Source: an uncultured Methanomassiliicoccales archaeon
GTDB taxonomy: Archaea; Thermoplasmatota; Thermoplasmata; RBG-16-68-12; JAJISG01
Length of the DNA stretch: 24,000 bases
Assembly (NCBI GenBank): GCA_964347325.1
Contig: CAYFYA010000005.1
Location: 52,984-76,983, forward strand
Reading direction: 5' to 3'
The position numbers were made by a program, and so were the translations under genes. The notes under the pieces are model-generated. The model searched no databases. It was given only the letters and a program-made list of their open reading frames with translations, and had not been told where the DNA came from. Below are positions 2,059 through 14,010 of the stretch, in pieces. Within the stretch, counting starts at the first letter, position 1. Every line of letters begins with the position of its first letter.

Positions 2059-2706
2059 ATGCTACGGGAGTGCAGTTCCCATGGATTCTTCCGGGGCGAG
2101 ATCTGCCCCAATTGCGGCAGCAAGGGCAAGTTCCTGCTCAATGAGAGGGAGCTAAACACCCTTGGCCGCACGATGGCGGGAGTCCTGCGCCATTTCCCCC
2201 AGAGGTACGGCCTCGAGATGGACGATCACGGTTGGGTCGACCTCCGGGACCTCGTGACCGCCATCCAGATCAGGCACAGGAAGTTCAAGTTCCTCAAGCC
2301 GCACCACATTATCGCCCTCGTCCAGACCGATCCCAAGGGTCGATACCAGTTCGAAGAGGGACGGGTCAGAGCCACCTACGCTCACTCCATCGACCTCGAC
2401 CTGGACTTGCCCACGGAGGACATCCCCCCGGTCCTGTACTACCCGACCACGGAGGAGGAGTGCAGCATCCTCTTGGAGATCGGGCTAAGGCCCGCGGACC
2501 GGCAGTGGGTCCACATCAGCGACACCTTGGAGAGCGCGACGGAGGCGGGACAGGTGAGGACGGCGGACCCTGTCATTCTCAAGGTCGACGCGGAGAAGGC
2601 GAGGGAGGAGGGAGTTGTGATAAAGAAGGCTGGGAAGTACGTCTACATCACCAAGGAGGTACCGCCAGAGTTCCTCAGCCGCGTCGAGGGACCCGAGGCT
2701 ACGTAA
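2059..2706 (+). CDS. kptA: RNA 2'-phosphotransferase (Tpt1/KptA family) with an N-terminal Cys/His zinc-ribbon-like extension
   Basis: The LRH, VRAxxAHS and RQWVHIS elements correspond to the R-H-R-R catalytic tetrad regions of Tpt1/KptA. The N-terminus has CSSHGFFRGEICPNCG. The C-terminal 8 nt overlap convergent purP. Confidence 0.85.
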   Translation: MLRECSSHGFFRGEICPNCGSKGKFLLNERELNTLGRTMAGVLRHFPQRYGLEMDDHGWVDLRDLVTAIQIRHRKFKFLKPHHIIALVQTDPKGRYQFEEGRVRATYAHSIDLDLDLPTEDIPPVLYYPTTEEECSILLEIGLRPADRQWVHISDTLESATEAGQVRTADPVILKVDAEKAREEGVVIKKAGKYVYITKEVPPEFLSRVEGPEAT

Positions 2707-3856
2707 CTATCTTCCCCACTTCGCCCCTATCTATAGCCATCCGGACCTCTAGGGCGACCCTCCTCCCGGTGCTCATCCGGGAGCGCCATAGGGTGTTCCC
2801 GTAGGGGTGGCCTACAGACATGTGGACATTTGTGCCGCCGCCGATTCGTGGCGAGACGTCGTAGATGAAGAAGTTCATATCCTTGTCCACGCACGTCTGG
2901 AGCGTGAAGGGTCCGATCACGCCCGGGGGGAAGTACCTCTGAGTAGCCTCGACATAAGCCTCCGCCAATGGGAAGACCTTGCTCAGCAGGGACTCCCTGA
3001 GGGTAGCCGAGTTATGACCGCATACGACGTACTCCGGGAGTTTCTCTTCGCCAACCAGCGTGAGTTGCTGCTCCGCAGGCAGCCTCACGTGTCCATCCAG
3101 AGATGTCTCGAAGCGCCAGTCGATGCCCAGGAGCTCCAGCCTCTCGCCCGAATCTTCGAGCGGTGAGTAGAAGAAGTCGAAGTTGAAGACGGGACCGAGG
3201 ATGTACTTCTCCACCCTGGCGACCTCCAGATCCTCCTCGGTTATGACGCCCTGCTCGAGGAGGCTGCCGGCCTTCTCCTCAAATTCCTCAGGGCTTGCGG
3301 CGGTGAAGAAGCCCCGCTCCAGCCGTTTGACCTTGTGAGGAAGCTTAATGATGGCCAAGGAGTCGATCTCATCCGGCGAGGTGTACAGGCGAGGAAAGGG
3401 CAGGCCCGCCTTCTCGAGAATCCAGTAGTAGCCCTTCTCCTCTGTCCTCTCCTCCGTCCGCAAGAGATTCCTGCCGCCTATCATCGGTACCCTGAAGTCA
3501 TCCTCCACCTCCCGCATGCCGCAGTAGGAGAAGAAGGACCTGTTGGGGACGAAGAGGACGTTGCCCTTGCGCAGACGGTCCTGGACCCTCTCCGAGGTCG
3601 CCTCCTTGAAGGACTTGAGGACCACAGCCTCGTCAACAACACCCCGGACGATTCTGCCTTCGGCGTCTCGCACCGCCTTGAAGTACCTCGCGTAGGGCTC
3701 ATGCCTCCCCTCCTGGCATAGCGCAATGGTCTGGAATCCTTCCTCCACGGCCCCGTCACACACGTCGAGAGCCGAGTGGGAGGCAAGGACCCCGATCTTG
3801 GCCCGGTCGAGATCGTACTTATCCAACACACCGAGGATGTCATCTCGTGCCATCAT
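2699..3856 (-). CDS. purP: 5-formaminoimidazole-4-carboxamide ribonucleotide (FAICAR) synthetase, archaeal ATP-grasp PurP
   Basis: ILGVLDKYDLDRAKIGVLASHSALDVCDGAVEEGFQT...GNVLFVPNRSF...GGRNLLRTEER...SPRIGGGTN is the PurP signature layout. The start is placed at the ATGATG at 3856/3853, because a TTTTATTA box (3886-3893) sits 30 nt upstream. The track start at 3901 would lie upstream of that box. Confidence 0.85.
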   Translation of the reverse strand: MMARDDILGVLDKYDLDRAKIGVLASHSALDVCDGAVEEGFQTIALCQEGRHEPYARYFKAVRDAEGRIVRGVVDEAVVLKSFKEATSERVQDRLRKGNVLFVPNRSFFSYCGMREVEDDFRVPMIGGRNLLRTEERTEEKGYYWILEKAGLPFPRLYTSPDEIDSLAIIKLPHKVKRLERGFFTAASPEEFEEKAGSLLEQGVITEEDLEVARVEKYILGPVFNFDFFYSPLEDSGERLELLGIDWRFETSLDGHVRLPAEQQLTLVGEEKLPEYVVCGHNSATLRESLLSKVFPLAEAYVEATQRYFPPGVIGPFTLQTCVDKDMNFFIYDVSPRIGGGTNVHMSVGHPYGNTLWRSRMSTGRRVALEVRMAIDRGEVGKIVT

Positions 3857-3885
3857 AGGCCATCCCGGCTTCATCTCGCCTCGGG

Positions 3886-3893
3886 TAATAAAA
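3886..3893 (-). promoter_or_regulatory. TATA box (TTTTATTA on minus strand) for purP, in the divergent purP / AGPS-like intergenic region
   Basis: This is the only AT-rich octamer between the divergent genes. The 30-nt spacing to the purP ATGATG is consistent with a leaderless or near-leaderless archaeal transcript. Confidence 0.5.
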
Positions 3894-3948
3894 CTCCCCA
3901 AGACACGGTGGAAACCTATTCAAGCTGAGGGACGATGCCACCGCGAGC

Positions 3949-5532
3949 ATGAGGAAGGATATGAGGTGGTGGGGGTGGGGTTCCCCCGATGTACGATATC
4001 CTTCAGAACGGCTGGAGCTTGCCCTTCGCTTCCTTGAGACTCGAGGAATCAAGCTCAGGGAGGCCCAAGAAATCCCGAGTGTGCCATCCCTTCCGCCGAG
4101 TCGGCTCAGGGCGGAAGACCTGGAGGCCCTCGAGGGTGCCTTGGAGGTATCCACAGACGACGAAGTCCGCATCAGTCGCTCCCTAGGGAAGGGCTACCTC
4201 GACCTCCTCAAGGTGAGGCTGGGGCGGGTAGAAGAGTTTACCGATGCCGTGGCCTTTCCAAGGGATTCTGAACACGTGCGCCTCCTATTGGAAACGGCTG
4301 CATCGCGCGGAATAGCCGTTGTCCCTTATGGCGGTGGGACCTCCGTCCTCGGGGGACTCAGACCGTTGAGGGGGCGAAACAGAGCTGTAGTCACCGTCGA
4401 CCTTCGTCATCTGAACAAGGTCCTCGAGGTCGACGAGGTCTCCCTTCTGGCCAGGGTGGAGGCGGGTGTCAGTGGGCCAGAACTGGAGGAGGTCCTCGGT
4501 CGGCACAATATGACTCTTGGCCACTTCCCCCAGTCCTTCCACTTCTCCACTCTCGGTGGTTGGATCGCCACCCGAGCCTCTGGTCATCTCTCGGGAGCGT
4601 ACGGTCGCATCGAGAACATGGTCCAGTCGGTAAGTCTTGTGACACCTCAGGGGACCCTCGTCACAAAGGATGTCCCTGCAAGATCCGCAGGCCCCGAGCT
4701 GCGGGAGCTGGTCCTGGGGTCAGAGGGTGCCTTCGGCATCATCACGGAAGCGGTGGTAAGGGTGCGGAGGAGTCCTGAGGCCAGAGCCAGAAGGGTTCTC
4801 CTCATCCCAGGCTTCACCACGGCCTTGGATGCGGCTCGGGGAATGATTCAGTCGGGAATCGTGCCTTCTCTCTTGCGCATCTCAAACGAGGATGAGAGCT
4901 CGATGATCGCTCACATGGCTGGGCTAGAGGCGGAGGAAGTCCCCTCCATAGTCCTCTTGGGCTTCGACGGCACCAAGGATGACACGGTGGCCTCAATGGA
5001 GACCGCAGTTGAATCCCTTGTAGACGCAGGAGCCCTGGACCTGGGAGAGGAGCCCGCCCTCGTCTGGGAGGAGGAGTACTACACGACGCCATACCTTCGC
5101 GATGACTTCCTTGCCCGTGGCCTCCTGGTTGACACGCTTGAGACGGCCGCATCATGGAGAGGACTGCAAAAGCTTTACGTCGCAGTTCGCCACGCATTGC
5201 TGGACGCGTACTCTCAAGGGGGTGTCCAGGGGTTGGTCCTCTGTCATCTCTCTCACACCTATCGAGATGGCGGCTCACTCTACTACACCCTCATCGCGCC
5301 CCGGGAGCAGGGGAAGGAGGTTGAGCAGTGGTGGGAGATCAAGCGGGCCGCCACAGAGGCGATAATGAGAGCGGGCGGGACCATCAGCCACCATCATGGC
5401 GTAGGTACCGATCACCTCTCCTGGATCTTGGAGGAGCACGGAGAGACTGCCCTCATGGCGCTCAAATCGCTCAAGATAGCCGTAGACCCAAAGGGTATCA
5501 TGAATCCGGGGAAGGTGGTGCGGGAGGAGTGA
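3949..5532 (+). CDS. FAD-linked oxidase of the alkylglycerone-phosphate (alkyl-DHAP) synthase-like family
   Basis: N-terminal MRWWGWG (AGPS RWNGWG-like). FAD_binding_4 region VVPYGGGTSVLGG...VDL..LNKVLEVD. C-terminal SHHHGVGTDH...DPKGIMNPGK, typical of AGPS/GlcD-type vanillyl-alcohol-oxidase-fold enzymes. The stop overlaps the next ATG (TGATG). Confidence 0.8.
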   Translation: MRKDMRWWGWGSPDVRYPSERLELALRFLETRGIKLREAQEIPSVPSLPPSRLRAEDLEALEGALEVSTDDEVRISRSLGKGYLDLLKVRLGRVEEFTDAVAFPRDSEHVRLLLETAASRGIAVVPYGGGTSVLGGLRPLRGRNRAVVTVDLRHLNKVLEVDEVSLLARVEAGVSGPELEEVLGRHNMTLGHFPQSFHFSTLGGWIATRASGHLSGAYGRIENMVQSVSLVTPQGTLVTKDVPARSAGPELRELVLGSEGAFGIITEAVVRVRRSPEARARRVLLIPGFTTALDAARGMIQSGIVPSLLRISNEDESSMIAHMAGLEAEEVPSIVLLGFDGTKDDTVASMETAVESLVDAGALDLGEEPALVWEEEYYTTPYLRDDFLARGLLVDTLETAASWRGLQKLYVAVRHALLDAYSQGGVQGLVLCHLSHTYRDGGSLYYTLIAPREQGKEVEQWWEIKRAATEAIMRAGGTISHHHGVGTDHLSWILEEHGETALMALKSLKIAVDPKGIMNPGKVVREE

Positions 5533-7175
5533 TGGAATCCGGCTTCAACTGGAGACGACGAGAGGAGGGATTGGAGGCCCTTGATAAGGAGTTCGACGTC
5601 ATAGTCGTCGGCGGCGGAATCAACGGCTGCGCGGTGGCGAACGAGACAGCGAGGAGAGGTCAACGCGTTCTCCTCTTGGAGAAGGGGGACATCGGCAGCG
5701 GGACCAGCGGTAGGTCATCACGCCTGATCCACGGAGGGTTGAGGTATCTCAAACATGGACAGGTTAAGGTCGTTTGGGACGGGTGCAGAGAGCGCCACTG
5801 GTTGAGGACCCACTACCCCTACCTCGTTCGCCCGGTTCGGTTCATCATACCCTTCTACGAAGGCGAGGGAGAGGGGCCTGTCCTGACTTTTCTGGGACTC
5901 TGGATCTACGATCTCCTCTCGGCCTTCAGGAATGTCAGCAGGCACCGTCGTCTGAGGCGAGGGGAGGTCCTCGCCGAGGAACCAAGACTGCGATCAGGGG
6001 GGCTCCAGGGTGGTGCCGTCTACTACGACTGCATGACCGATGACTTCAGGCTCGTTCTCCTCAACGCCGCCATGGCGAACGCTGCGGGGGCGTACGTACT
6101 CTCGCACTGCCGCGTGGAAGCCCCCACACTCGAAAACGATCGCGTGGTTGGGGTACAGTTCACCGACCTGTTAAGCGGCGAACCCCATTCGGCCCGAGGT
6201 CGAATCGTGATCAACACCACGGGCCCATGGAGCGACCTGATTAGAGTCGGGATTGGGGCCGCAGAGCCGATGTTGAGGCCGACCAAGGGCGTTCACCTAA
6301 TCGTCCCACGGGAGAAGGTAGGTAACCGCAACGCCGTGGTCATCAGATCTCCGACGGATGGACGAGTCCTCTTCACCCTCCCATGGGGGAAGCACACCAT
6401 CATCGGGACCACCGACACCGACTTCCCAGGTGACCCGGACGAGGTTCAGGTTGAGGGGTGGGATGTGGACTACCTGCTCGAGGCAGTGAATGGCGCCTTT
6501 CCTCGGACCGAACTTCGGCGCAGTGACGTAGTGAGCACCTACGCAGCCCTCCGCCCTCTGGTCGGGCGACAAGGTGTGTCCGAAGGAGAGGTAAGCAGAG
6601 ACTTCAAGATCGTGGAAGATGCGCCGGGGCTTGTGTCCATTCTGGGCGGGAAGCTCACCACCTACAGGCCCTCAACGCTTAGGGTTGCAGACATCGTTTC
6701 GCGGATAGTATCCAGGCGTCCGGACAAGATGAGAAGAGGCACTGGCACCCGAAGGGGCATCCCGGAGGAAGACATTCTCGGCATCAAGAAAGAGGCCGCA
6801 CAGAGAGCCGCCCAACTCGGATTGGATCAAGAGGTCGCCGGCTCTCTGGTCGCTTCCTACGGCCCACACTCCGGGTCGATCCTGGAGCTCGCCTCTCAGG
6901 GGGACCTCCGCAGGAGGATTGTTCCGGACCTCCCTCGGATCATGGCTGAGATCGTCTATTCCGTCGAAAGTGAAATGGCTCTGAGATTGGAGGACGTTCT
7001 TGTCCGTCGAACCAGGTTGTTCTACGAAGATACAGGGCACGGGTTGGGGGTAGCCAAGGAGGTCGCGGAACTGATGGCAGCCAGGACGGGGTGGAGTGAC
7101 GAGCGAGTTCAACGAGAGGTGGACGATTACCGTGGCCTCGTGGAATCGATGAGGGCCTCTCTGGAGGGGGGCTAG
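5532..7175 (+). CDS. glpD: FAD-dependent glycerol-3-phosphate dehydrogenase/oxidase (GlpD/GlpO family)
   Basis: From the internal ATG: MESGFNW...FDVIVVGGGINGCAVANETARRGQRVLLLEKGDIGSGTSGRSSRLIHGGLRYL (dinucleotide fold plus the GlpD signature), followed by a long C-terminal GlpD-type helical domain. The 68 upstream codons in the track overlap the preceding gene and are not credible. Confidence 0.85.
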   Translation: MESGFNWRRREEGLEALDKEFDVIVVGGGINGCAVANETARRGQRVLLLEKGDIGSGTSGRSSRLIHGGLRYLKHGQVKVVWDGCRERHWLRTHYPYLVRPVRFIIPFYEGEGEGPVLTFLGLWIYDLLSAFRNVSRHRRLRRGEVLAEEPRLRSGGLQGGAVYYDCMTDDFRLVLLNAAMANAAGAYVLSHCRVEAPTLENDRVVGVQFTDLLSGEPHSARGRIVINTTGPWSDLIRVGIGAAEPMLRPTKGVHLIVPREKVGNRNAVVIRSPTDGRVLFTLPWGKHTIIGTTDTDFPGDPDEVQVEGWDVDYLLEAVNGAFPRTELRRSDVVSTYAALRPLVGRQGVSEGEVSRDFKIVEDAPGLVSILGGKLTTYRPSTLRVADIVSRIVSRRPDKMRRGTGTRRGIPEEDILGIKKEAAQRAAQLGLDQEVAGSLVASYGPHSGSILELASQGDLRRRIVPDLPRIMAEIVYSVESEMALRLEDVLVRRTRLFYEDTGHGLGVAKEVAELMAARTGWSDERVQREVDDYRGLVESMRASLEGG

Positions 7176-7176
7176 G

Positions 7177-8094
7177 ATGCTGATCGTCGTGAACCCCAAA
7201 GCTGCGGGGGGAGAAGTCGGTCGAAGTTGGCCGCAGCTTGAGCCTCGTCTCAGGTCACTGGTCGACATGCCGAGGGTAGCAACCACCACGGGGCCTCTCT
7301 CAGCCATCGGATTCATCGAGGATGCCCTCGCACAGGGTGAGACGGAAATCGCCATCGTCGGCGGCGACGGGACCGTCAACGAAGCCGTCAATGCCCTCAT
7401 CGAAGGCGATCGACCTGTCCTGAAGGAGGCACGTCTCACGATTATCCCCGTGGGTAGCGGCACGGATTACGCCAAGACGCTGGGACTGCCGAGAGGTCTC
7501 GAGCACGCCGAGGCGATTTTTCGGGCTACAGCCACTAGGCTTGTCGACGTGGGGAAGGCGACCTTTGTCAACTTTGAAGGAGAGACGGAGACCCGCTACT
7601 TTGCGAACATCTTGGAGGCTGGTGTGGGGGCAGAGGTGGTCGAGAAGGTCAATCGAAGCTCGAAGCTCCTCGGAGGTACGGCGGCATTCCTGTGGGCCAT
7701 CGTAACGACACTGCCTGGGTATGAGAACCGGGCGATGGAAGTCGAGGTGGATGGTGAGGTGATTGCCGTCGGCCTCATGAACAGTGTGATCATTGCGAAC
7801 GGCAGGTTCTACGGAAGTGGGCTCCAGCCAGCGCCCATGGCTGAGGTCGACGATGGCACTTTCGAAATAGTCCTCATCGGGGATTTCACGCTCGGGGAGG
7901 CGTTAAGCAATCTTGGCAAGCTTCGAACGGGAGACCACCTGGAGCATCCCAAGGTCAGCCATGCTAGGGGGAAGCGTGTCGTCGTTTCGGCCGAGCGTGA
8001 GGTCTTGGCGGAGATGGACGGAGAGGTCGTAGGCGGACTACCGATGGAGGTGGACCTGCTGCCTCGCCTCCTCCCCGTTCGCGTCCTCCGCTGA
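7177..8094 (+). CDS. Diacylglycerol-kinase-family lipid kinase (YegS/BmrU/LCB5-like)
   Basis: MLIVVNPKAAGG...IAIVGGDGTVNEAVNALI...PVGSGTDYAKTLG...EMDGE is the DAGK catalytic-domain layout. The ATG lies 1 nt after the glpD stop. Confidence 0.8.
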   Translation: MLIVVNPKAAGGEVGRSWPQLEPRLRSLVDMPRVATTTGPLSAIGFIEDALAQGETEIAIVGGDGTVNEAVNALIEGDRPVLKEARLTIIPVGSGTDYAKTLGLPRGLEHAEAIFRATATRLVDVGKATFVNFEGETETRYFANILEAGVGAEVVEKVNRSSKLLGGTAAFLWAIVTTLPGYENRAMEVEVDGEVIAVGLMNSVIIANGRFYGSGLQPAPMAEVDDGTFEIVLIGDFTLGEALSNLGKLRTGDHLEHPKVSHARGKRVVVSAEREVLAEMDGEVVGGLPMEVDLLPRLLPVRVLR

Positions 8095-8126
8095 AGGCCT
8101 TATTACTCATCCCCCTTTCTCATGCG

Positions 8127-8684
8127 ATGCCCCTCCCCGCCGTCTACAGGGAATCGCTACCTGTTCTACTATTGGCGGGGCTAGGTCTGGTAGCGGCCGG
8201 CCTCGTCCTCGGAGGAATGAGGGATGTCCTGGAACGTACTCCTGGGCTCCTGGTTATGGTGCCGGCCCTCATCGCCCTTCGCGGCGGCATCAGTGGCGCC
8301 CTTGGCGCGCGGATGGGCTCCGCCTTCCACATGGGTCTAATCTCGGAGGGCAGCCTCTGGAACGACGAGGCTCAGCAGAACGTGCTCGCTGCCGTTCTTT
8401 TGAGCGCCCTCTTCTCCTTCCTGGCGGGCGTATTGAGCTACGCGACCTCGATTCTACTAGGCCTCCAGACTGCAAGTCTCGTGTCCCTTGCGCTCATCGC
8501 CACGCTTGCCGGAACCCTGGCTGGCATTTCGCAGGTTGGCATAACCTTCGGCATCATCCTGGCTGCCTTCCGTTGGGGTCTCGATCCAGATAACGTTACC
8601 ACCCCCACCCTGGCAACCGTCGGGGATGTCATCACAATCCTCCTCCTCTTCGTGATCGCCCTGTCCATGGGAGGCGTTGCATGA
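8127..8684 (+). CDS. MgtE/SLC41-type divalent cation transporter membrane domain, half-size subunit A (185 aa)
   Basis: Multi-TM protein with PALIALRGGISGALGARMGS and GLDPDNVTTPTLATVGDVITILLLF, which match MgtE-family transmembrane-domain motifs. It has no cytosolic N/CBS domains. Confidence 0.7.
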   Translation: MPLPAVYRESLPVLLLAGLGLVAAGLVLGGMRDVLERTPGLLVMVPALIALRGGISGALGARMGSAFHMGLISEGSLWNDEAQQNVLAAVLLSALFSFLAGVLSYATSILLGLQTASLVSLALIATLAGTLAGISQVGITFGIILAAFRWGLDPDNVTTPTLATVGDVITILLLFVIALSMGGVA

Positions 8685-9238
8685 CGTTCTACTCCTACAG
8701 GACCATCATGGGCGAGAGCTTCCTGGCGCTGACCTTTCTTCTGGTTGTCACCCTCCTTGCGGGCCACCTCCTCAACGGGGCTGCCGACCTCTTCCTGGCG
8801 GCCCCCTTTCTCCTCATCCTGGTTCCCGTGGTCAACGGCATCGGCGGGAACGTTGGTACTGTCCTTGGATCCCGAATCACCTCGGGCCTCTATACAGGGA
8901 CCATCGCCCCGAAGCTGGGGGACAGGGGGCTCCTCCGGAACGTCAGAGACGGCGTCATCCTCTACATCGTAACCTTCACCGTTCTGGCAATGTTCATATA
9001 CGGATTGGGGCCATTAACAGGAGTCGTACCACCCTTTGGAGTGGGGGTGCTCCTCTTAGTCATGCTCTCCACCGGTCTGATGCTCGCGGGGGTCCTTACC
9101 GCGGTGACCGTCTCGGTGGCCTTCCTATCCTTTTCCAGGGGCCTAGACCCCGACAACTTCGTCACTCCGGTGGTGACGACTATGGGAGACATCGTTGGAA
9201 TTGGATTCCTGGTCTTGGTTCTGGGGGTGCTACTGTGA
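8681..9238 (+). CDS. MgtE/SLC41-type divalent cation transporter membrane domain, half-size subunit B (185 aa, paralog of the previous gene)
   Basis: VPVVNGIGGNVGTVLGSRITS and GLDPDNFVTPVVTTMGDIVGIGFLV, with the same length and layout as subunit A. ATGA overlap with the upstream gene. Confidence 0.7.
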   Translation: MTFYSYRTIMGESFLALTFLLVVTLLAGHLLNGAADLFLAAPFLLILVPVVNGIGGNVGTVLGSRITSGLYTGTIAPKLGDRGLLRNVRDGVILYIVTFTVLAMFIYGLGPLTGVVPPFGVGVLLLVMLSTGLMLAGVLTAVTVSVAFLSFSRGLDPDNFVTPVVTTMGDIVGIGFLVLVLGVLL

Positions 9239-9843
9239 AAGAGAGCTTTGAGGAAGTCGAGTACGAGCCTACGAGCGTCAAGGACCTGTTGGTTGAGATG
9301 AAGGATACCAGCGAACTGATTATCGACCTGGCGTACGCGGCGGTAATGTTCGACAGTGACGAGCTGGCGGAGGAGGTCCGTCACCTGGAGAGCAGGATGG
9401 ACTTCCTGAGGTACCAGATGCGTATGATCGCCCTCATGGCTAGCAGGACGAGAGAGGACTCCGAGAGGCTGGCGGGGATCCTTCAGGTTGCTTCGGCCGC
9501 GGAGACCATCTCGAACGCGGCGGGCGACATCGTGGACCTCCTGGAGCAGAGGATAGAAGCTAGGCCCTTCCTGCCCTTCGTCCTCCAGGAAGCGGAGGAG
9601 AAGATCCGAATCCTGCGAATGAGCAAGAAGTCCTCCATGCTAGCGCGGGACGTAGCGGACCTTCGAGTTGAGTCGGAGACCGGGATGAGGATTATCGCCA
9701 TCCGCCGCGGAAGACGTTGGAACTACGACCCGCCTAGCAGCACAGTCCTCAGGGAAGGCGACCTGTTGATTGTTCGTGGGACGGAAGACGGCTACAACAG
9801 GCTGACGAGATACGCGTCTGGAGAGGAGGGTTGGCCGGGGTGA
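9235..9843 (+). CDS. Cytosolic PhoU-like helical domain + TrkA-C (RCK_C) domain protein, copy 1
   Basis: Only the last 202 codons of track ORF 8677..9843 are credible, with a GTG start at 9235 overlapping the upstream TGA. The sequence VKDLLVEMKDTSELIIDLAYAAV...ETISNAAGDIVDL is followed by VADLRVESETGMRIIAIRRGRRWNYDPPSSTVLREGDLLIVRG (TrkA-C pattern). Confidence 0.65.
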   Translation: MKESFEEVEYEPTSVKDLLVEMKDTSELIIDLAYAAVMFDSDELAEEVRHLESRMDFLRYQMRMIALMASRTREDSERLAGILQVASAAETISNAAGDIVDLLEQRIEARPFLPFVLQEAEEKIRILRMSKKSSMLARDVADLRVESETGMRIIAIRRGRRWNYDPPSSTVLREGDLLIVRGTEDGYNRLTRYASGEEGWPG

Positions 9844-9847
9844 TCGC

Positions 9848-10402
9848 TTGGATATAGAGGACATTCTCCTTGAGATGAAGGACACGAGCGAGCTGATGGT
9901 GGACCTGGCCTACTCTGCCCTCCTCTACGACAACGAGGAGATCGCCCGCCAGGTCCTGGAGCTGGAGAGCCAAGTAGACGAATGGGACGAACAGGTTCAG
10001 AAGCTGGCGGTGGAGAGGGCGATCGAGGATAGAGACGTGGAGAAGGCCCTGGTCTTCATACGACTCGCGGACTCCATCGAGACAGTAGCCGACGGTGCCA
10101 TCGAGATCGCCGACGTCGTTCTGAGGGATATCGAGCCCCATCCTGTGGTGGCAGCCGCATTGAAGGAGTCAGATACTGCAATCACAACCGTGAAGGTGCC
10201 TGCAGCATCTCCGGCGGCGGGCAGAACGCTGGGGGAGATGAAGCTGGCTTCAGAGACCGGCATGTGGGTCATCGCCATTCGCAGGGGAGAGAGATGGATC
10301 TACGGCCCCGACGAGAACACTCGGGTGGAGCCGGGAGATCTGCTCATCGCCCGCGGACCCGTGGAAGGCGAGGAGGAGCTTAGGCACTACATCGGTGGAT
10401 AG
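9848..10402 (+). CDS. Cytosolic PhoU-like helical domain + TrkA-C (RCK_C) domain protein, copy 2
   Basis: Paralog of the previous gene: ILLEMKDTSELMVDLAYSAL...ETVADGAIEIADV...LGEMKLASETGMWVIAIRRGERWIYGPDENTRVEPGDLLIARG. TTG start. The stop codon overlaps the 3' end of the convergent tRNA. Confidence 0.65.
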   Translation: MDIEDILLEMKDTSELMVDLAYSALLYDNEEIARQVLELESQVDEWDEQVQKLAVERAIEDRDVEKALVFIRLADSIETVADGAIEIADVVLRDIEPHPVVAAALKESDTAITTVKVPAASPAAGRTLGEMKLASETGMWVIAIRRGERWIYGPDENTRVEPGDLLIARGPVEGEEELRHYIGG

Positions 10403-10472
10403 CCCCGGGCAGATTCGAACTGCCGTCACGAGGTCCAGAACCTCGCATGATTGACCGCTACACTACGGGGCT
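10400..10472 (-). tRNA. tRNA-Gln(CUG), copy 1 (73 nt, no encoded CCA)
   Basis: Hand-folded minus-strand sequence AGCCCCGTAGTGTAGCGGTCAATCATGCGAGGTTCTGGACCTCGTGACGGCAGTTCGAATCTGCCCGGGGCTA. Acceptor AGCCCCG/CGGGGCT (A1:U72), discriminator A. Anticodon stem CGAGG/CCTCG with loop TT-CTG-GA. T arm GGCAG-TTCGAAT-CTGCC. Confidence 0.85.
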
Positions 10473-10495
10473 GCTTTGAGGCCTCATCTAGGCCT

Positions 10496-12184
10496 CTAGG
10501 AGCGGTTCACGCCAGAATCGCGTTTCTGCATCTTCGCCCATGGGTCGCGGAGCGTCGCTGTCCTGTTCAGCACCAACCGATCATCTTCAGTATCGGGGTC
10601 CACGCAGAAATAGCCATTCCGTTCGAACTGGAATCGTGAGAAGGGCCCCAGCCCGCGAACCGCGGGCTCGACCTTGCAGCCCATCAAGACCTTGAGAGAC
10701 TCTGGGTTCACGAAATCCTTGAAGTCCCTGCCCCTCTCACCGAGTGGGTCCGATACGTTGAAGAGCTTGTCGTAGAGGCGCACCTGGGCATCGACAGCGT
10801 GTTCAGCCGAGACCCAATGCAGCGTGGATCGGACCTTCCTGCCGTCGGGGGCGTCTCCCCCTCGCGTGGCTGGGTCCACCGTGCAGCGAAGTTCCACTAC
10901 CTCCCCACCTTCCTTGATCGCCTCCTGGCACGTGACCAGGTAGGCGTACCTCAGCCTGACCTCCCGACCCGGTGCCAATCGGTAGTACTTCTCCGGAGGG
11001 TCTTCCATGAAGTCTTCCGCCTCGATGTAGAGGACGCGGGAGAAGGGCACCTTGCGGGTGCCAGCACTCGGATCCTCCGGATTATTCACGGCATCGAACC
11101 ACTCCACCTTGGCCTCCGGGTGGTTCTCGATAACCAGTCTCAGAGGGCGCAGGACACCCATGAATCGCGGCGTGGTCCTGTTGAGATCTTCCCGTACACA
11201 ATGCTCCAAGAATTCGAAGTCGACCGTGCTGTGGACCTTGGCAACGCCGATTCGACTGCAGAAACTCCTGATGGAAGCGGGGGAGTAGCCGCGGCGGCGC
11301 ATCCCACTGATAGTGGGCAAACGAGGGTCGTCCCATCCGTCGACGTAGCCACCCTCGACGAGTTCTAGGAGCTTCCGCTTGCTCATCACCGTGTAAGTCA
11401 GGTTGAGGCGTGCAAACTCGATCTGCCGCGGATGGTAGACACCAAGCTCCCCCAGGTACCAATCGTAGAGGGGACGATGGTCCTCGAACTCCAGGGTGCA
11501 TAGGGAGTGGGTGATGCCCTCGATGGAGTCTTCCAGGCCGTGGGCCCAATCGTAGGTTGGGTAGATGCACCACTTGTCCCCGGTGTTATGGTGGGTGGCG
11601 TGAAGGATCCTGTACATCACGGGATCTCGCATGTTCATATTCGGATGGGCCATGTCGATCCTAGCGCGCAAGACCTTCTCCCCCTCGGAGAACTCGCCAG
11701 CTCGCATCCGCTCCAGCAGTTCTAGGTTCTCACCGACAGACCGCTTCCTGTGGGGGCTCTCGATTCCAGGGGTTGTCAGCGTCCCTCGCTGCTCGCTGAT
11801 TTGCTCCGCCTGCAGGTCGTCCACAAAAGCCTTGCCCTTCTTGACCAGCTGGACCGCATAGTTATACATCTGGTCGAAGTAGTCGGAGGCGAAGTAGAGG
11901 CGGTCATCCCAGTCGAAGCCGAGCCACTTCACGTCCTCGATGATCGACTGGACGTACGTCTTCTCCTCTCTGAGGGGGTTCGTGTCGTCGAAGCGGAGGT
12001 TGCAGAGGCCTCCATACTCCTCAGCGACGCCGAAGTTGAGGCAGATCGACTTGGCGTGGCCTATGTGGAGGTAGCCGTTGGGCTCCGGTGGGAAGCGAGT
12101 GTGCACTCGACCCTCGTATCTGCCCGTCTGGTTGTCCTTATCGATGATCTTGCGGATGAAGTCCGTTGGAGGCTCCGATTCCAT
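10496..12184 (-). CDS. glnS: Glutaminyl-tRNA synthetase, bacterial type (562 aa)
   Basis: It can be aligned by eye along its full length with E. coli GlnS as remembered: [134 protein letters not shown]. The start is placed at MESEPP (12184) because the 28 extra track codons run into the upstream tRNA gene. Confidence 0.9.
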
Positions 12185-12211
12185 GGCAGCCCACTCTGAG
12201 GATGCTGGAGA

Positions 12212-12282
12212 TAGCCCCGGCCGGATTTGAACCGGCGCCTGGGGATCCAGAGTCCCATATGCTGCCACTACACCACGGGGCT
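12212..12282 (-). tRNA. tRNA-Gln(CUG), copy 2 (71 nt, no encoded CCA)
   Basis: Hand-folded minus-strand sequence AGCCCCGTGGTGTAGTGGCAGCATATGGGACTCTGGATCCCCAGGCGCCGGTTCAAATCCGGCCGGGGCTA. Same acceptor stem and discriminator as copy 1. Anticodon stem (T)GGGA/TCCC(C) with loop CT-CTG-GA. T arm GCCGG-TTCAAAT-CCGGC. Confidence 0.8.
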
Positions 12283-12308
12283 GCTCCTTAAGTCTCAGTC
12301 CAAGTTGT

Positions 12309-12316
12309 CTCTAAAT
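12309..12316 (-). promoter_or_regulatory. TATA box (TATTTAGA, preceded by purine-rich GGAAAGG) for the tRNA-Gln / glnS / tRNA-Gln unit
   Basis: Minus strand reads GAGGAAAGGTATTTAGAGACAACTTGGACTGAGACTTAAGGAGC followed by the tRNA 5' end. The box ends 27 nt upstream of tRNA position 1, the canonical archaeal spacing. Confidence 0.55.
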
Positions 12317-12423
12317 ACCTTTCCTCAATTGCGCGGCACGGACCGCTTCAGGCAGGTGGGCTGACATCCACCGCAGCTCCGTAGGGGGGCCACATTATCA
12401 GGGAGGTCTTGCAGGCGGGAACT

Positions 12424-14010
12424 TCAGTCTCGGCTGGCCTCATCCAATCGAGAGAGGACGAAGTCCCTGTCCAGGACGACGAGCAACGGTGCGGCCCTGG
12501 GACCTGATGGCTTACCTAGAAAAACCGTGTAGAGAGCGGCGAAGAACCTCTTCGTCGAAACTCGCAGGGTTCCGCTGCCCGTGAGCTCCACCATGGCATC
12601 CTTCACGCTCCCCTCCAACCAGGGGATGTCCTCCAGCCGACCCCGCAGGGCGGCCAACGCTTCTCTTTCCTTGCTGGAGAGGCCCTCCCGCACCTCAGCG
12701 GGCAAGGTCTCTTGTATCTGAAAGCGTGCATCTTCCGGACCATAGTTGGTCACCCACAGTAGCGACTGTTCAAGCCGCTTCCCAAGCAGCTCCCTCTCCG
12801 CCTGCGTGAGAGACCTATCCAGGAGTCCAGTGTCCTCCAGCCGCCTTGTGGACCAGTCGAGACGGCCGTCAGGAGGTGCCGCTTGAGCCATAATAGATGC
12901 ATGGCGATAGGCAACCTGGAAGGGCATCTCAGAAGGGGGCGCACCGAGTAGAGATAGCGAGTATGACCTAGCCTCAGGCGACTCGCCACTGAAGAACGCG
13001 GCCTCACCTTGGTCATAGGCCTGATGATACAAGTCCATCTTGGCAAGGTCCAGGACGACCCTGCGGCGGATCGGGATGTTGGCATACAGGAAGCGGAGGA
13101 TCTCGGGCTCCGCCATCTCCAGCCACTCCTCGGGCCCGAACCCCACGAAGTCTGAGCTGTCCATATCTCCTCGGTCCTGACCGTTCTCCGATAGGCCCAC
13201 CCACTCGTATGGAATGCCCAAAGGCGGCTTAATCCCAATGACGTCTTCAGCGATGGCAGCACAGCTCTCCCGGGAGCCACCTGGCGCCGCGTGGTCCTTC
13301 CCGAAGGGCTCCACATCCACCTTAAGCAGGGCCCAGAGGGCAGGCCACTCTACCCGCCAGTTCAGTTTGCCCAGACTCAGGTGTGACGTCCCGCTGTGGC
13401 CGCACCCGCACTCATAGTCGACCTCGGCCGCACGAACCTCGAGGGCCCTGGCCTGGCCAACTCGATGACACTCATCGCACAGAGGCTCGAAGGGGACCCA
13501 GCCCTCTGGATGGGGGTTACGGGGCCTGTAATCGTTGAGTATCCGCCTTATCTCCTCCGTCAGGGGCAGTATTCGTCGGACGAGATCAATCATCTCCTCT
13601 CGCTCGTAGATCTCCGTCGTCGTCGTAACCTCGACGCCGGGAGCAAAGCGCTGCAGCGAGGAGCCGAAGCCCTCCCAGAAGTGGTCCACCCAGTTCCCAT
13701 GGCACCCGTGGGGGTCAGGAACGTCGATCAGCCGCCAGCCCGTGTAGGCCTTTCCTTCATCTCCAGCGAACTGTGCGACCTGTTTGGGACTTCCCTTCCA
13801 CGGGTCCTGCGTGTAAAGGACGAGGTGCTGGACTACCTCCTTCCCCTCATCCCTGAGGTGCGAGGCGATGAAGTGGTTGAGGACGATCTCTCCACGCAGC
13901 CTTCCGACGTGCTGGAGGCCCGACACGGAGAGGCCCGCGTTGCAGACTACCTTCGACTTGGACGCTAGGAAAGCGTCTACGGAGTGGGCAAGCTCATCGA
14001 ACCAGTGCAT
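12424..14010 (-). CDS. lysK: Class I lysyl-tRNA synthetase homolog (528 aa) with a non-canonical KMSKS loop
   Basis: MHWFDELA..., SGLQHVGRLRG (HVGN-type HIGH motif), VPDPHGCH, a CxxC...CxC zinc-like insertion, LNWRVEWPALW, EPFGKDH, and C-terminal FFAALYTVFLGKPSGPRAAPLL all follow the class I LysRS layout. The KMSSSKG position reads DMDSSDF. Confidence 0.8.
   Translation of the reverse strand: MHWFDELAHSVDAFLASKSKVVCNAGLSVSGLQHVGRLRGEIVLNHFIASHLRDEGKEVVQHLVLYTQDPWKGSPKQVAQFAGDEGKAYTGWRLIDVPDPHGCHGNWVDHFWEGFGSSLQRFAPGVEVTTTTEIYEREEMIDLVRRILPLTEEIRRILNDYRPRNPHPEGWVPFEPLCDECHRVGQARALEVRAAEVDYECGCGHSGTSHLSLGKLNWRVEWPALWALLKVDVEPFGKDHAAPGGSRESCAAIAEDVIGIKPPLGIPYEWVGLSENGQDRGDMDSSDFVGFGPEEWLEMAEPEILRFLYANIPIRRRVVLDLAKMDLYHQAYDQGEAAFFSGESPEARSYSLSLLGAPPSEMPFQVAYRHASIMAQAAPPDGRLDWSTRRLEDTGLLDRSLTQAERELLGKRLEQSLLWVTNYGPEDARFQIQETLPAEVREGLSSKEREALAALRGRLEDIPWLEGSVKDAMVELTGSGTLRVSTKRFFAALYTVFLGKPSGPRAAPLLVVLDRDFVLSRLDEASRD

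Follow-up and report, generated by a model that had tools for sequence, protein, structure and literature searches.

An operon for an AGPS-like flavoenzyme, GlpD and a lipid kinase in a Thermoplasmata archaeon: a candidate module for G3P/DHAP-backbone glycerolipids

Overview

Inspection of a 24,000-nucleotide stretch of DNA from an uncultured Methanomassiliicoccales archaeon (hereinafter the window) reveals three translationally coupled genes on the forward strand, which encode an AGPS-like flavoenzyme, a GlpD-type glycerol-3-phosphate dehydrogenase and a lipid kinase of the DAGK/YegS family. This triad recurs in two domains of life far above chance expectation, and its adjacency is not a matter of chance. 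We tentatively propose that it constitutes an operon for glycerolipids with a G3P/DHAP backbone, which forms or remodels alkyl ether glycerolipids, a reading that we regard as possible though short of probable; its substrates, the order of its reactions, its anabolic direction and any product of it in the membrane are inferred. The first-pass annotation took the host to be an archaeon, and the flanking genes for PurP, DTD2 and class I LysRS, together with relatives bearing the name Thermoplasmata archaeon, bear this out.

Organization of the operon

The features of the locus are as follows:

3857-3960, no strand: divergent intergenic region between purP (minus strand) and the operon, with a putative TATA box and GAGGAAGGA; read from the sequence
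3961-5532, plus strand: AGPS-like FAD enzyme (alkyl-DHAP synthase family), gene 1; 523 aa from the ATG at 3961
5530-5534, plus strand: TGATG stop/start overlap of genes 1 and 2, with GGGAGGAG just before; read from the sequence
5532-7175, plus strand: FAD-dependent sn-glycerol-3-phosphate dehydrogenase/oxidase (GlpD/GlpO type), gene 2; 547 aa
7173-7179, plus strand: TAG-G-ATG junction of genes 2 and 3 with a 1-nt gap, GGAGGGGGG just before; read from the sequence
7177-8094, plus strand: soluble lipid kinase of the DAGK_cat/YegS family, gene 3; 305 aa

Direct reading of the two junctions confirms the tight coupling described at first pass: the gene 2 ATG (5532-5534) overlaps the gene 1 TGA stop (5530-5532), and the gene 2 TAG stop (7173-7175) is separated from the gene 3 ATG at 7177 by a lone G at 7176. 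Overlaps or gaps of 1-4 nt between the triad genes recur in four other loci (L002, L003, L084 and L086), with equivalent overlaps at the gene 1/2 junction in L002, L084 and L086 and an equal 1-2 nt spacing at the gene 2/3 junction in L002 and L003. An open reading frame for gene 1 does extend from 3949 to 5532 on the plus strand, as in the 527-aa product annotated earlier; however, its true start is probably not 3949 but the second ATG at 3961, because a database copy of the protein (P0001, 100% identical, 523 aa) begins there and because ahead of this ATG stands GAGGAAGGA, a sequence similar to a ribosome-binding site, with no counterpart before 3949. GGAGG-like sequences also lie close upstream of the starts of genes 2 and 3. 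Within the purP/operon intergenic region, the A/T-rich TAATAAAA at 3886-3893 may be an archaeal TATA box with a role in the promoter; a scan for the bacterial promoter consensus returned no match.

Family affinities of the three proteins

Sequence searches, profile comparisons, the predicted structure and the catalytic residues concur in identifying the gene 1 protein as a member of the AGPS family, as proposed at first pass, rather than of the glycolate/D-lactate dehydrogenase group. It combines FAD_binding_4 and FAD-oxidase_C domains, with the motif MRKDMRWWGWG at the N-terminus and ISHHHGVG close to the C-terminus. A phmmer search of the PDB recovers Dictyostelium ADPS (1.6e-93) and mammalian AGPS (5e-63) ahead of the next family (8e-30), and family profiles separate AGPS (1.6e-151 for Dictyostelium and 3e-116) from D-LDH (2e-58). 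An AF2 model (pLDDT 84.5) compared by Foldseek gives a TM score of 0.91 to mammalian AGPS as against 0.75 to D-LDH, and by aligned columns and TM the AGPS match spans nearly the whole protein, unlike the D-LDH matches. Identity to Dictyostelium AGPS is 36%, on par with other bacterial homologues. Further, R306, S431, Y441 and H477-479 are the equivalents of mammalian Arg419, Thr568, Tyr578 and His615-617; the histidines are kept in 140 of 140 prokaryotic homologues and the tyrosine in 139. At the position of Arg419, the substitution of which by His inactivates the mammalian enzyme (PDB 4bc7 is the structure of this mutant), a second Thermoplasmata subgroup that retains the triad carries a Tyr. 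NCBIfam matches are to GlcD and related models, all well under their cut-offs, and NCBI labels proteins of this type only as ‘FAD-binding oxidoreductase’.

The initial calls for the other two genes likewise hold. Gene 2, with DAO and DAO_C domains, is by its sequence a canonical GlpD/GlpO-type G3P dehydrogenase and looks like the ordinary housekeeping type: its best NCBIfam matches are the G3P dehydrogenase model PRK12266 (320 bits, below the equivalog cut-off of 360) and type 1 GlpO, and its PDB matches are the GlpD 3da1 (6e-83), the GlpO 2rgh (7.5e-79) and E. coli GlpD (2.9e-63). The stretches GGGINGC, SGTSGRSSRLIHGGLRYL, KGVHL, LRPL and GGKLTTYR align with their counterparts in 3da1 and 2rgh, and the GlpDs of the archaeal and Chloroflexota triads cluster with ordinary housekeeping GlpD/GlpO proteins. 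Gene 3, with DAGK_cat and YegS_C domains and a GGDGT motif, is assignable to the YegS/Rv2252/BmrU lipid kinase family, as it scores 137.8 bits against TIGR00147 (cut-off 118.65) and matches DgkB, BmrU and YegS in the PDB (1e-20 to 1e-14).

Conservation, relatives and origin of the triad

Among archaea, the triad occupies one syntenic slot in two Thermoplasmata sublineages (L002, L003 and L087, all preserving the junction with PurP), despite identities as low as 44%. In bacteria, collinear triads with overlapping genes are found in Dehalococcoidia (L084, L086) and other Chloroflexota (L018, L068), and a permuted order occurs in Parvibaculaceae (L078). Of 80 bacterial species loci, 45 have the AGPS-like gene flanked by both of its partners, the mycobacterial glpD1/Rv2251/Rv2252 arrangement among them. 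The three-way association that the first-pass annotation noted for actinobacteria is real, with both partners present in all 14 Streptomyces and all 7 Nocardia loci and in 10 of 12 from Mycobacterium. All three proteins rank their relatives alike: Thermoplasmata at 50-63% identity, Chloroflexota at 34-47% and Actinomycetota at 24-45%.

The Chloroflexota triads share gene order, strand and stop/start overlaps with the archaeal one and are its most similar non-archaeal versions (AGPS-like protein 46-47%, GlpD 41%, kinase 34-39%), but they reside in bacterial hosts with other flanks (lipoate genes, a glycosyltransferase). In the actinobacterial loci the same three families are adjacent, with AGPS-like proteins that share 40-45% identity with that of the window; however, their GlpD1 forms a separate, more divergent group (31-35%), their kinase is only 24-33% identical to gene 3, and glpD1 has a divergent orientation, separated from the flavoenzyme gene by a regulator gene, whereas the archaeal genes share one strand. 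For Rv2252, DAG kinase activity with a link to PIM synthesis has been reported. The locus of BCG and M. tuberculosis runs Rv2249c (glpD1), Rv2250c, Rv2251 (flavoprotein), Rv2252 (diacylglycerol kinase) (PMC4564863).

Relative to the eukaryotic and myxobacterial AGPS/ADPS enzymes (PDB 2uuu, 4bby; M. xanthus MXAN_1676), the gene 1 protein has the full-length fold, FAD_binding_4 and cap domains, 30-36% identity over aligned columns and the Arg419, Tyr578 and HHH-loop equivalents in common; the peroxisomal targeting of the eukaryotic versions does not apply to it. The partners differ: those of AGPS in the classical pathway are FAR and GNPAT, fused as FARAT (the operon of M. xanthus being MXAN_1674-1676; bioRxiv 10.1101/2025.10.10.681575), whereas in the triad their place is taken by GlpD and the DAGK-family kinase. 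Fatty-acyl reductase and DHAP or G3P acyltransferase genes were found neither in the window nor in any triad locus examined, and therefore the classical partners are locally missing. GlpK-GlpD glycerol catabolism also uses an ordinary type 1 GlpD/GlpO, but the triad has no glycerol kinase or facilitator, its kinase belonging to the lipid-kinase and not the sugar-kinase family. Gene 3 shares fold family and GGDGT motif with DgkB/YegS kinases; unlike in either of these systems, the glpD and kinase genes of the triad are coupled with an AGPS-like one.

Other neighborhoods are seen as well. A solo AGPS-like gene of Solirubrobacterales sits near a CDP-alcohol phosphatidyltransferase, another AGPS-like clade adjoins an aldehyde dehydrogenase, and the Dehalococcoidia triad has a glycerophosphodiesterase and an alpha/beta hydrolase upstream. 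The operon in the window lies amid housekeeping genes with no regulator nearby.

The closest non-archaeal relatives are bacterial, and the module appears to derive from bacteria. The archaeal genes are nested within the bacterial ones and match their archaeal flanks in composition (GC 0.606-0.608, GC3 about 0.69-0.71), which suggests that the acquisition was old rather than recent; the Thermoplasmata sequences form one clade (bootstrap support 60/60).

Functional interpretation

In the scheme that we tentatively favor, GlpD would oxidize sn-glycerol-3-phosphate to DHAP, from which an acyltransferase encoded elsewhere would make 1-acyl-DHAP. On this substrate the AGPS-like enzyme, with its conserved Tyr, HHH loop and Arg, would put a long-chain alcohol in place of the acyl group through a non-redox reaction via a covalent flavin adduct, giving the ether 1-O-alkyl-DHAP. 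The kinase would phosphorylate the corresponding neutral glycerolipid (diacyl-, alkylacyl- or monoradyl-glycerol) at sn-3 and feed it back into the phosphatidate-type pool, such that bacterial-type (G3P-configured) alkyl ether glycerolipids would be synthesized or remodelled beside the normal archaeal lipids. The anabolic direction is hinted at by the Solirubrobacterales phosphatidyltransferase neighbor, the housekeeping context lacking a regulator and mycobacterial co-expression: the four locus genes of M. tuberculosis/BCG shift expression together (PMC4564863), and Rv2251 and Rv2252 rise with fatty-acid synthase genes upon resuscitation (PMC6689984). Against the proposal stand the missing local FAR and acyltransferase, the Tyr in place of Arg419 in one subgroup and a study of plasmalogen origins that detected no evidence for the plasmalogen pathway among Archaea (bioRxiv 10.1101/2025.10.10.681575). 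Moreover, biosynthesis has no evident need of a GlpD of its own, DHAP being a central metabolite.

The pairing of GlpD with a kinase is also typical of catabolism, wherein GlpD acts in the oxidative direction and the kinase customarily precedes the dehydrogenase, as in glycerol breakdown by GlpK and then GlpD. On this logic the triad might instead salvage or break down scavenged ether or lyso-glycerolipids, which we hold to be rather unlikely: the kinase would phosphorylate the sn-3 position of a 1-O-alkyl- or 1-acyl-glycerol, oxidation of C2 by the GlpD-type enzyme would yield alkyl- or acyl-DHAP, and an exchange by the AGPS-like enzyme, with water or a fatty acid as acceptor, would free the alcohol and deliver DHAP to central metabolism. 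The three enzymes would then form a single linear pathway with no partner missing, which fits their strict co-occurrence and coupling without a nearby acyltransferase or reductase. The aldehyde dehydrogenase beside another AGPS-like clade could dispose of the released alcohol, the Dehalococcoidia hydrolytic genes are in keeping with such a route, and a regulator such as Rv2250c, of the TetR type, is common in inducible operons. However, the archaeal and Chloroflexota GlpDs retain the motifs of the housekeeping enzymes with which they cluster, and nothing in them hints at acceptance of a lipid-substituted G3P; no lyso-PA or alkyl-G3P dehydrogenase is known in the GlpD family. AGPS chemistry is not known to release an alkoxide, and the mycobacterial triad genes rise with fatty-acid synthesis genes (PMC6689984).

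It is more doubtful still that the AGPS-like protein was repurposed within the VAO/PCMH superfamily, for instance as a dehydrogenase or electron-transfer partner in G3P-centred energy metabolism with no ether-bond role. The sub-threshold GlcD matches, the generic NCBI name and the loss of the Arg419 equivalent in one archaeal subgroup are compatible with this, as are the anaerobic GlpABC and GlcDEF systems, in which related flavoproteins join in G3P or 2-hydroxy-acid oxidation. Nevertheless, AGPS outscores GlcD/D-LDH by both profile and structure, its fold match alone is nearly full-length, and the residues of non-redox AGPS catalysis (Tyr578, HHH loop) are near-invariant in the 140 homologues. 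That the genes form no functional unit, being adjacent by chance or through a bacterial fragment joined or binned with archaeal DNA, is scarcely credible: while the nearest non-archaeal relatives are indeed bacterial, this reading is already contradicted by the single contig with archaeal housekeeping genes on both sides, an equal layout independently recovered in a Logan assembly, two NCBI MAGs and a JGI contig, and the composition and clade support given above.

The relevance of the G3P/DHAP glycerolipid module to the lipid divide is to be treated as a hypothesis and not a finding, because it looks bacterial, its GlpD is ordinary and neither FAR nor a DHAP acyltransferase lies nearby. AGPS matches in archaeal MAGs have been reported previously. 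The module to which the present locus belongs occurs widely among bacteria, and in one Thermoplasmata lineage it has been fixed for a long time.

Organization of the operon and its genomic context

The lipid-related operon occupies the forward strand, and its three genes correspond to the following entries of the ORF listing:

3949-5532, forward strand: ORF of gene 1, encoding an AGPS-like (alkyl-DHAP synthase-like) FAD enzyme
5532-7175, forward strand: ORF of gene 2, encoding a GlpD/GlpO-type enzyme, taken from the in-frame ATG used
7177-8094, forward strand: ORF of gene 3, encoding a YegS-family lipid kinase

Reading of the junctions bears out the tight spacing reported in the first-pass annotation: the stop codon of gene 1 overlaps the start codon of gene 2 in a TGATG at 5530-5534, and a lone G separates the TAG of gene 2 (7173-7175) from the ATG of gene 3 at 7177. 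The three genes are translationally coupled, with GGAGG-like sequences also ahead of the starts of genes 2 and 3. The ORF originally assigned to gene 1 stands, whereas its start probably has to be moved by 12 nt, from 3949 to the ATG at 3961. This ATG is preceded by GAGGAAGGA, with nothing comparable before 3949; it is further supported by the fact that the 523-aa product starting there is on record as an identical database protein (P0001), whereas an exact look-up of the 527-aa form returned no match. Both terminal motifs from which the enzyme had been recognized are present, namely MRKDMRWWGWG at the N-terminus and ISHHHGVG close to the C-terminus. The GC content of the three genes is 0.606-0.608, and both GC and GC3 are near the values of the flanking genes. 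A bacterial promoter scan of 3700-8400 found none, its bacterial consensus being uninformative for an archaeal host, and a terminator scan of the same interval returned a single terminator-like site, within gene 3, which is equally uninformative for an archaeon and fewer than in shuffled sequences.

The flanks consist of ordinary archaeal housekeeping genes. Upstream lie a D-aminoacyl-tRNA deacylase of the DTD2 type, Tpt1 and a divergently transcribed PurP; downstream are two half-size MgtE-like genes, two PhoU/TrkA_C genes, GluRS and class I LysRS, followed by genes for a phosphoribosyltransferase, a DUF885 protein and dihydroorotate dehydrogenase. These archaeal flanks, together with close homologues that NCBI names “Thermoplasmata archaeon”, confirm the attribution to an archaeal host. 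Additionally, a Logan assembly, two NCBI MAGs and a JGI contig each yielded the identical layout independently, which, along with the native composition, rules out a chimera or contamination.

Several observations concern the neighboring genes themselves. The PurP ORF is listed at 2699-3901 on the reverse strand, with 400 aa from a TTG start at 3901. Its orthologues at two other Thermoplasmata triad loci have 385 aa (L002) and 379 aa (L003), the listed ORF being about 15 codons longer, and translation probably initiates at an ATG in the stretch around 3851-3856; such a later start would widen the divergent promoter region common to PurP and the operon. The segment at 8127-10402 on the forward strand, which begins 32 nt past the operon, comprises the two MgtE-like membrane genes (8127-8684 and 8681-9238, forward strand, overlapping by 4 nt) and the two PhoU and TrkA_C genes. 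The ORF listed at 8677-9843 was discarded as a reading-frame artefact, the real gene lying at roughly 9235-9843. This set is kept at L002 and L003 and missing from a third Thermoplasmata locus (L087), and hence forms a separate cation-transport unit, which may nevertheless be co-transcribed with the operon. At the far end, an ORF at 17707-24000 on the reverse strand exceeds 2095 aa and extends beyond the end of the window. It has 17% Asp, thrombospondin type 3-like Ca-binding repeats (DxDxDGxxD), a sole Pfam match (TSP3_bac) below the cut-off and a GC content of 0.56 versus 0.60 in the remaining window; it probably encodes a giant Ca-binding protein that is secreted or surface-located.

Family assignment of the three proteins

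The gene 1 product combines the FAD_binding_4 and FAD-oxidase_C domains. In phmmer searches against solved structures it recovers Dictyostelium AGPS (1.6e-93) and mammalian AGPS (5e-63) well ahead of the next family (8e-30), and a profile built from 15 homologues scores AGPS at 1.6e-151 and 3e-116 versus 2e-58 for D-lactate dehydrogenase. An AlphaFold (AF2) model (pLDDT 84.5, pTM 0.85) matches mammalian AGPS (4bby/5ae3) in Foldseek with a TMq of 0.89-0.91 over about 545 columns, i.e., nearly full length, as against 0.75 for D-LDH. At the residue level, R306, S431, Y441 and H477-479 (523-aa numbering) align with Arg419, Thr568, Tyr578 and His615-617 (guinea-pig numbering), two of which are the positions named in the titles of the AGPS mutant structures 4bca and 4bc7 (Tyr578Phe and Arg419His). 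Across the alignment of prokaryotic homologues, the HHH loop is present in 140/140 and the Tyr578 equivalent in 139/140. Searches, profile, fold and catalytic residues thus concur in placing the protein with AGPS, as initially proposed, and outside the glycolate and D-lactate oxidases; a glycolate or D-lactate dehydrogenase identity is rejected on the phmmer, profile and fold scores. The protein is a member of the AGPS (EC 2.5.1.26) family, with the corresponding enzymatic activity, in which a fatty alcohol replaces the acyl moiety of acyl-DHAP, predicted from sequence and model. The WWGWG motif is presumably tied to eukaryotic AGPS; the N-terminal 93 aa searched alone against the PDB gave noise matches only, so that this link draws on the full-length fold match.

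A variation at one of these positions is seen in a second, deeper Thermoplasmata subgroup, which comprises the protein encoded at 9001-10584 of L087 and the homologues P0042, P0044, P0045 and P0054. These carry a Tyr (“MAYLSDEEET”) at the position of the mammalian Arg419 and retain the whole triad of AGPS-like, GlpD and kinase genes. In AGPS itself, Arg419His is an inactivating disease mutation.

The gene 2 product has the DAO and DAO_C domains, an N-terminal GxGxxG FAD motif and the GlpD/GlpO motifs (…HGGLRYL…, KGxH, RPL, GGKxTxYR), and its PDB matches include B. halodurans GlpD (6e-83), streptococcal GlpO (7.5e-79) and E. coli GlpD (2.9e-63). Its proposed GlpD type therefore holds as a type 1 FAD-dependent G3P dehydrogenase/oxidase, at the family level only, since its scores stay short of the NCBIfam equivalog cut-offs (320 versus 360). 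The motifs and its grouping alongside Bacillus GlpD and Streptococcus GlpO suggest that its substrate would be free sn-G3P, with quinone or O2 as the acceptor. Gene 3 was rightly recognized as a DAGK/YegS-family lipid kinase: it has the DAGK_cat and YegS_C domains, the GGDGT motif and PDB matches to the family, and its 137.8 bits exceed the curated cut-off of 118.65 for TIGR00147 (YegS/Rv2252/BmrU lipid kinase family).

Conservation of the triad across archaea and bacteria

Four archaeal loci carry the triad. At L002 and L003 the operon sits in the same slot, and the three proteins are respectively 61/56/63% and 54/50/58% identical to those of the window. L087 has PurP, the triad and LysRS, with about 42-44% identity and no MgtE/PhoU genes, which marks the triad itself as the conserved unit; one cluster-mate of this group is named Thermoplasmata archaeon. 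The best non-archaeal matches (46-47%) come from Dehalococcoidia (L084, L086), with identical gene order and 1-nt overlaps. Loci from Chloroflexia and Chloroflexota (L018 and L068) are likewise collinear with the window triad, three Anaerolineae-type loci have the AGPS-like gene followed by GlpD, and a Parvibaculaceae locus (L078) shows the order GlpD, kinase, AGPS-like gene.

When partners were sought within 7 kb at 80 species-level bacterial loci, both GlpD and the kinase were found at 45/80, GlpD only at 6/80, the kinase only at 3/80 and neither at 26/80. Both partners accompany the AGPS-like gene at all 14 Streptomyces and all 7 Nocardia loci and at 10 of the 12 from Mycobacterium. The actinobacterial layout, with a divergent glpD1, a regulator, the flavoprotein and the kinase, is that of Rv2249c-Rv2252 of M. 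tuberculosis/BCG, so that the association with glpD1/Rv2251/Rv2252 raised in the first-pass annotation is real. A BCG data set shows coordinated changes of about +2.1 to +2.3 for these genes (PMC4564863). The survey thus finds the triad as a conserved neighborhood in Thermoplasmata, Chloroflexota and actinobacteria, and the trio is under selection to stay linked in both domains. Clustering the ORFs of 86 loci all against all, where spurious ORFs from high-GC genomes dominated, brought out lineage-specific synteny only and no universal fourth gene.

The AGPS-like gene also occurs on its own in other contexts. It is solo at 18/18 Solirubrobacterales loci, with GlpD or kinase genes nearby at 0/18; at these loci (e.g., L048, L081, L056) a CDP-alcohol phosphatidyltransferase, an FHA protein and a MerR regulator lie upstream and a 4HBT thioesterase downstream. 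A locus of this type labelled as a Bifidobacterium breve MAG (L060) clusters with Solirubrobacterales in the tree and is probably a mis-binned contig. A metagenome scan with the window protein returned no close archaeal relatives and only 24-46% homologues. Three metagenome contigs (L093, L098, L100, around 5600-13400) hold a separate AGPS-like clade that is 33-36% identical to the window protein and has no GlpD or DAGK neighbors. Its neighbors are NAD-epimerase/PRISE-like genes, reminiscent of MXAN_1674, and an aldehyde dehydrogenase, with a malate synthase G in L098 and a luciferase-like monooxygenase in L093 in addition.

Evolutionary history

The 22 closest Thermoplasmata AGPS-like sequences form a clade with an NJ bootstrap of 60/60; their union with the L087 group is recovered at 26/60 only, and bootstrapping singles out no donor lineage. 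In NJ trees that include no myxobacterial reference, the two eukaryotic AGPS fall outside all triad-type sequences, with the deep order unresolved, and a recent published AGPS analysis likewise encountered too little phylogenetic signal. Gene 1 is 36% identical to Dictyostelium AGPS, which makes it as close as other bacterial homologues. When the tree is rooted on the two eukaryotic sequences, the archaeal ones lie amid bacterial ones. The archaeal GlpD clusters with the Anaerolineae triad GlpDs, in a broad cluster that also contains Firmicute housekeeping GlpD/GlpO, and the actinobacterial GlpD1 proteins stand apart as a more divergent group. The ranking of relatives is alike for all three proteins (Thermoplasmata > Chloroflexota > Actinomycetota). 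Given this nesting among bacteria, the concordant ranking, the native composition and the conserved slot, the most economical scenario would be one old block acquisition of a bacterial-type module, followed by vertical inheritance.

Functional interpretation of the triad

The inferred targets of the module are glycerolipids built on a G3P/DHAP backbone. Our tentative preference, held at somewhat less than even confidence, is for a role in the biosynthesis or remodelling of such lipids: GlpD would deliver DHAP, the AGPS-like enzyme would convert acyl-DHAP, the product of an enzyme whose gene lies elsewhere, to 1-O-alkyl-DHAP, and the kinase would send neutral (alkyl/acyl)glycerols back into the phosphorylated pool. 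This is consistent with the joint upregulation of the mycobacterial genes Rv2251 and Rv2252 and of fatty-acid synthase genes during resuscitation (PMC6689984), the adjacency of the mycobacterial locus to accD6, the CDP-alcohol phosphatidyltransferase near the solo gene of Solirubrobacterales, and the housekeeping context of the archaeal operon, which has no regulator. Against it, a partner of the FAR or GNPAT type, which supply AGPS with alcohol and acyl-DHAP, is found neither in the 24-kb window nor in any triad neighborhood examined, and DHAP supply poses no obvious need for a dedicated GlpD. The missing partners are accounted for by the main rival, a somewhat less probable catabolic or salvage line mirroring GlpK-GlpD, in which the kinase would produce alkyl- or acyl-G3P, the GlpD-type enzyme would oxidize this to its DHAP counterpart, and the alcohol would be freed by the AGPS-like enzyme. 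Such a line would use all three enzymes, one after another; however, it needs a lipid-accepting GlpD, of which neither the sequence motifs nor the GlpD clustering give any sign.

A diverged redox function of gene 1 is unlikely, as the conserved non-redox catalytic residues speak against it, and chance adjacency or artefact has a negligible probability in view of the archaeal flanks, the independent recovery and the wide conservation of the triad. A more far-reaching reading, which we regard as quite improbable, is that in the Thermoplasmata lineage the AGPS-like enzyme would form the ether bond on a DHAP backbone, with an isoprenoid or fatty alcohol, without the canonical G1P/GGGP synthase route. 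As alkyl-DHAP is prochiral at C2, its product could feed either glycerol stereochemistry, so that a living archaeon might contain mixed or heterochiral ether lipids. In this case the triad would be self-sufficient, in that the kinase and the GlpD-type enzyme could turn monoacylglycerol, via lyso-PA, into the acyl-DHAP substrate; if true, this would also explain the triad of mycobacteria, Streptomyces and Chloroflexota.

Relationship to known systems and implications

In the classical pathway AGPS is paired with FAR and GNPAT, as in the M. xanthus operon MXAN_1674-1676 (bioRxiv 10.1101/2025.10.10.681575), unlike the window triad, whose partners are GlpD and the kinase. Agps homologues are common across bacteria and have “surprisingly” also been described in Black Sea archaeal MAGs, without further analysis (PMC11868695), and the AGPS family at the KEGG level has been counted among the candidate LUCA lipid enzymes (PMC11383801). 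The 2025 preprint on plasmalogen origins found no evidence of a plasmalogen pathway in Archaea (bioRxiv 10.1101/2025.10.10.681575). Neither bacterial-type lipid genes in Thermoplasmatota nor AGPS matches in archaea are new. In the literature searched, neither the triad nor Rv2251 has been the subject of a functional study, and no assay of a triad-type homologue is described.

The window harbors an archaeal member of a known, uncharacterized bacterial triad of three well-known enzyme families, presently an annotation-level finding only, with good comparative support. With its presence in mycobacteria (beside FAS-II genes), Streptomyces, Nocardia and Chloroflexota, the triad is among the more widely conserved lipid-related clusters without an assigned function, and this analysis adds a Thermoplasmata lineage in which it has been stably inherited. 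An ether-lipid product, and with it the relevance to the lipid divide raised in the first-pass annotation, are hypotheses. If the module is catabolic, it would represent the first proposed oxygen-independent cleavage route for glycerol ether lipids. If ether lipids are indeed made, an archaeon with a DHAP/G3P-based ether-lipid step of the bacterial/eukaryotic type would offer a concrete case for the lipid-divide debate, and would affect the source assignment of environmental alkyl-glycerol ether lipids and of “Agps” gene matches.
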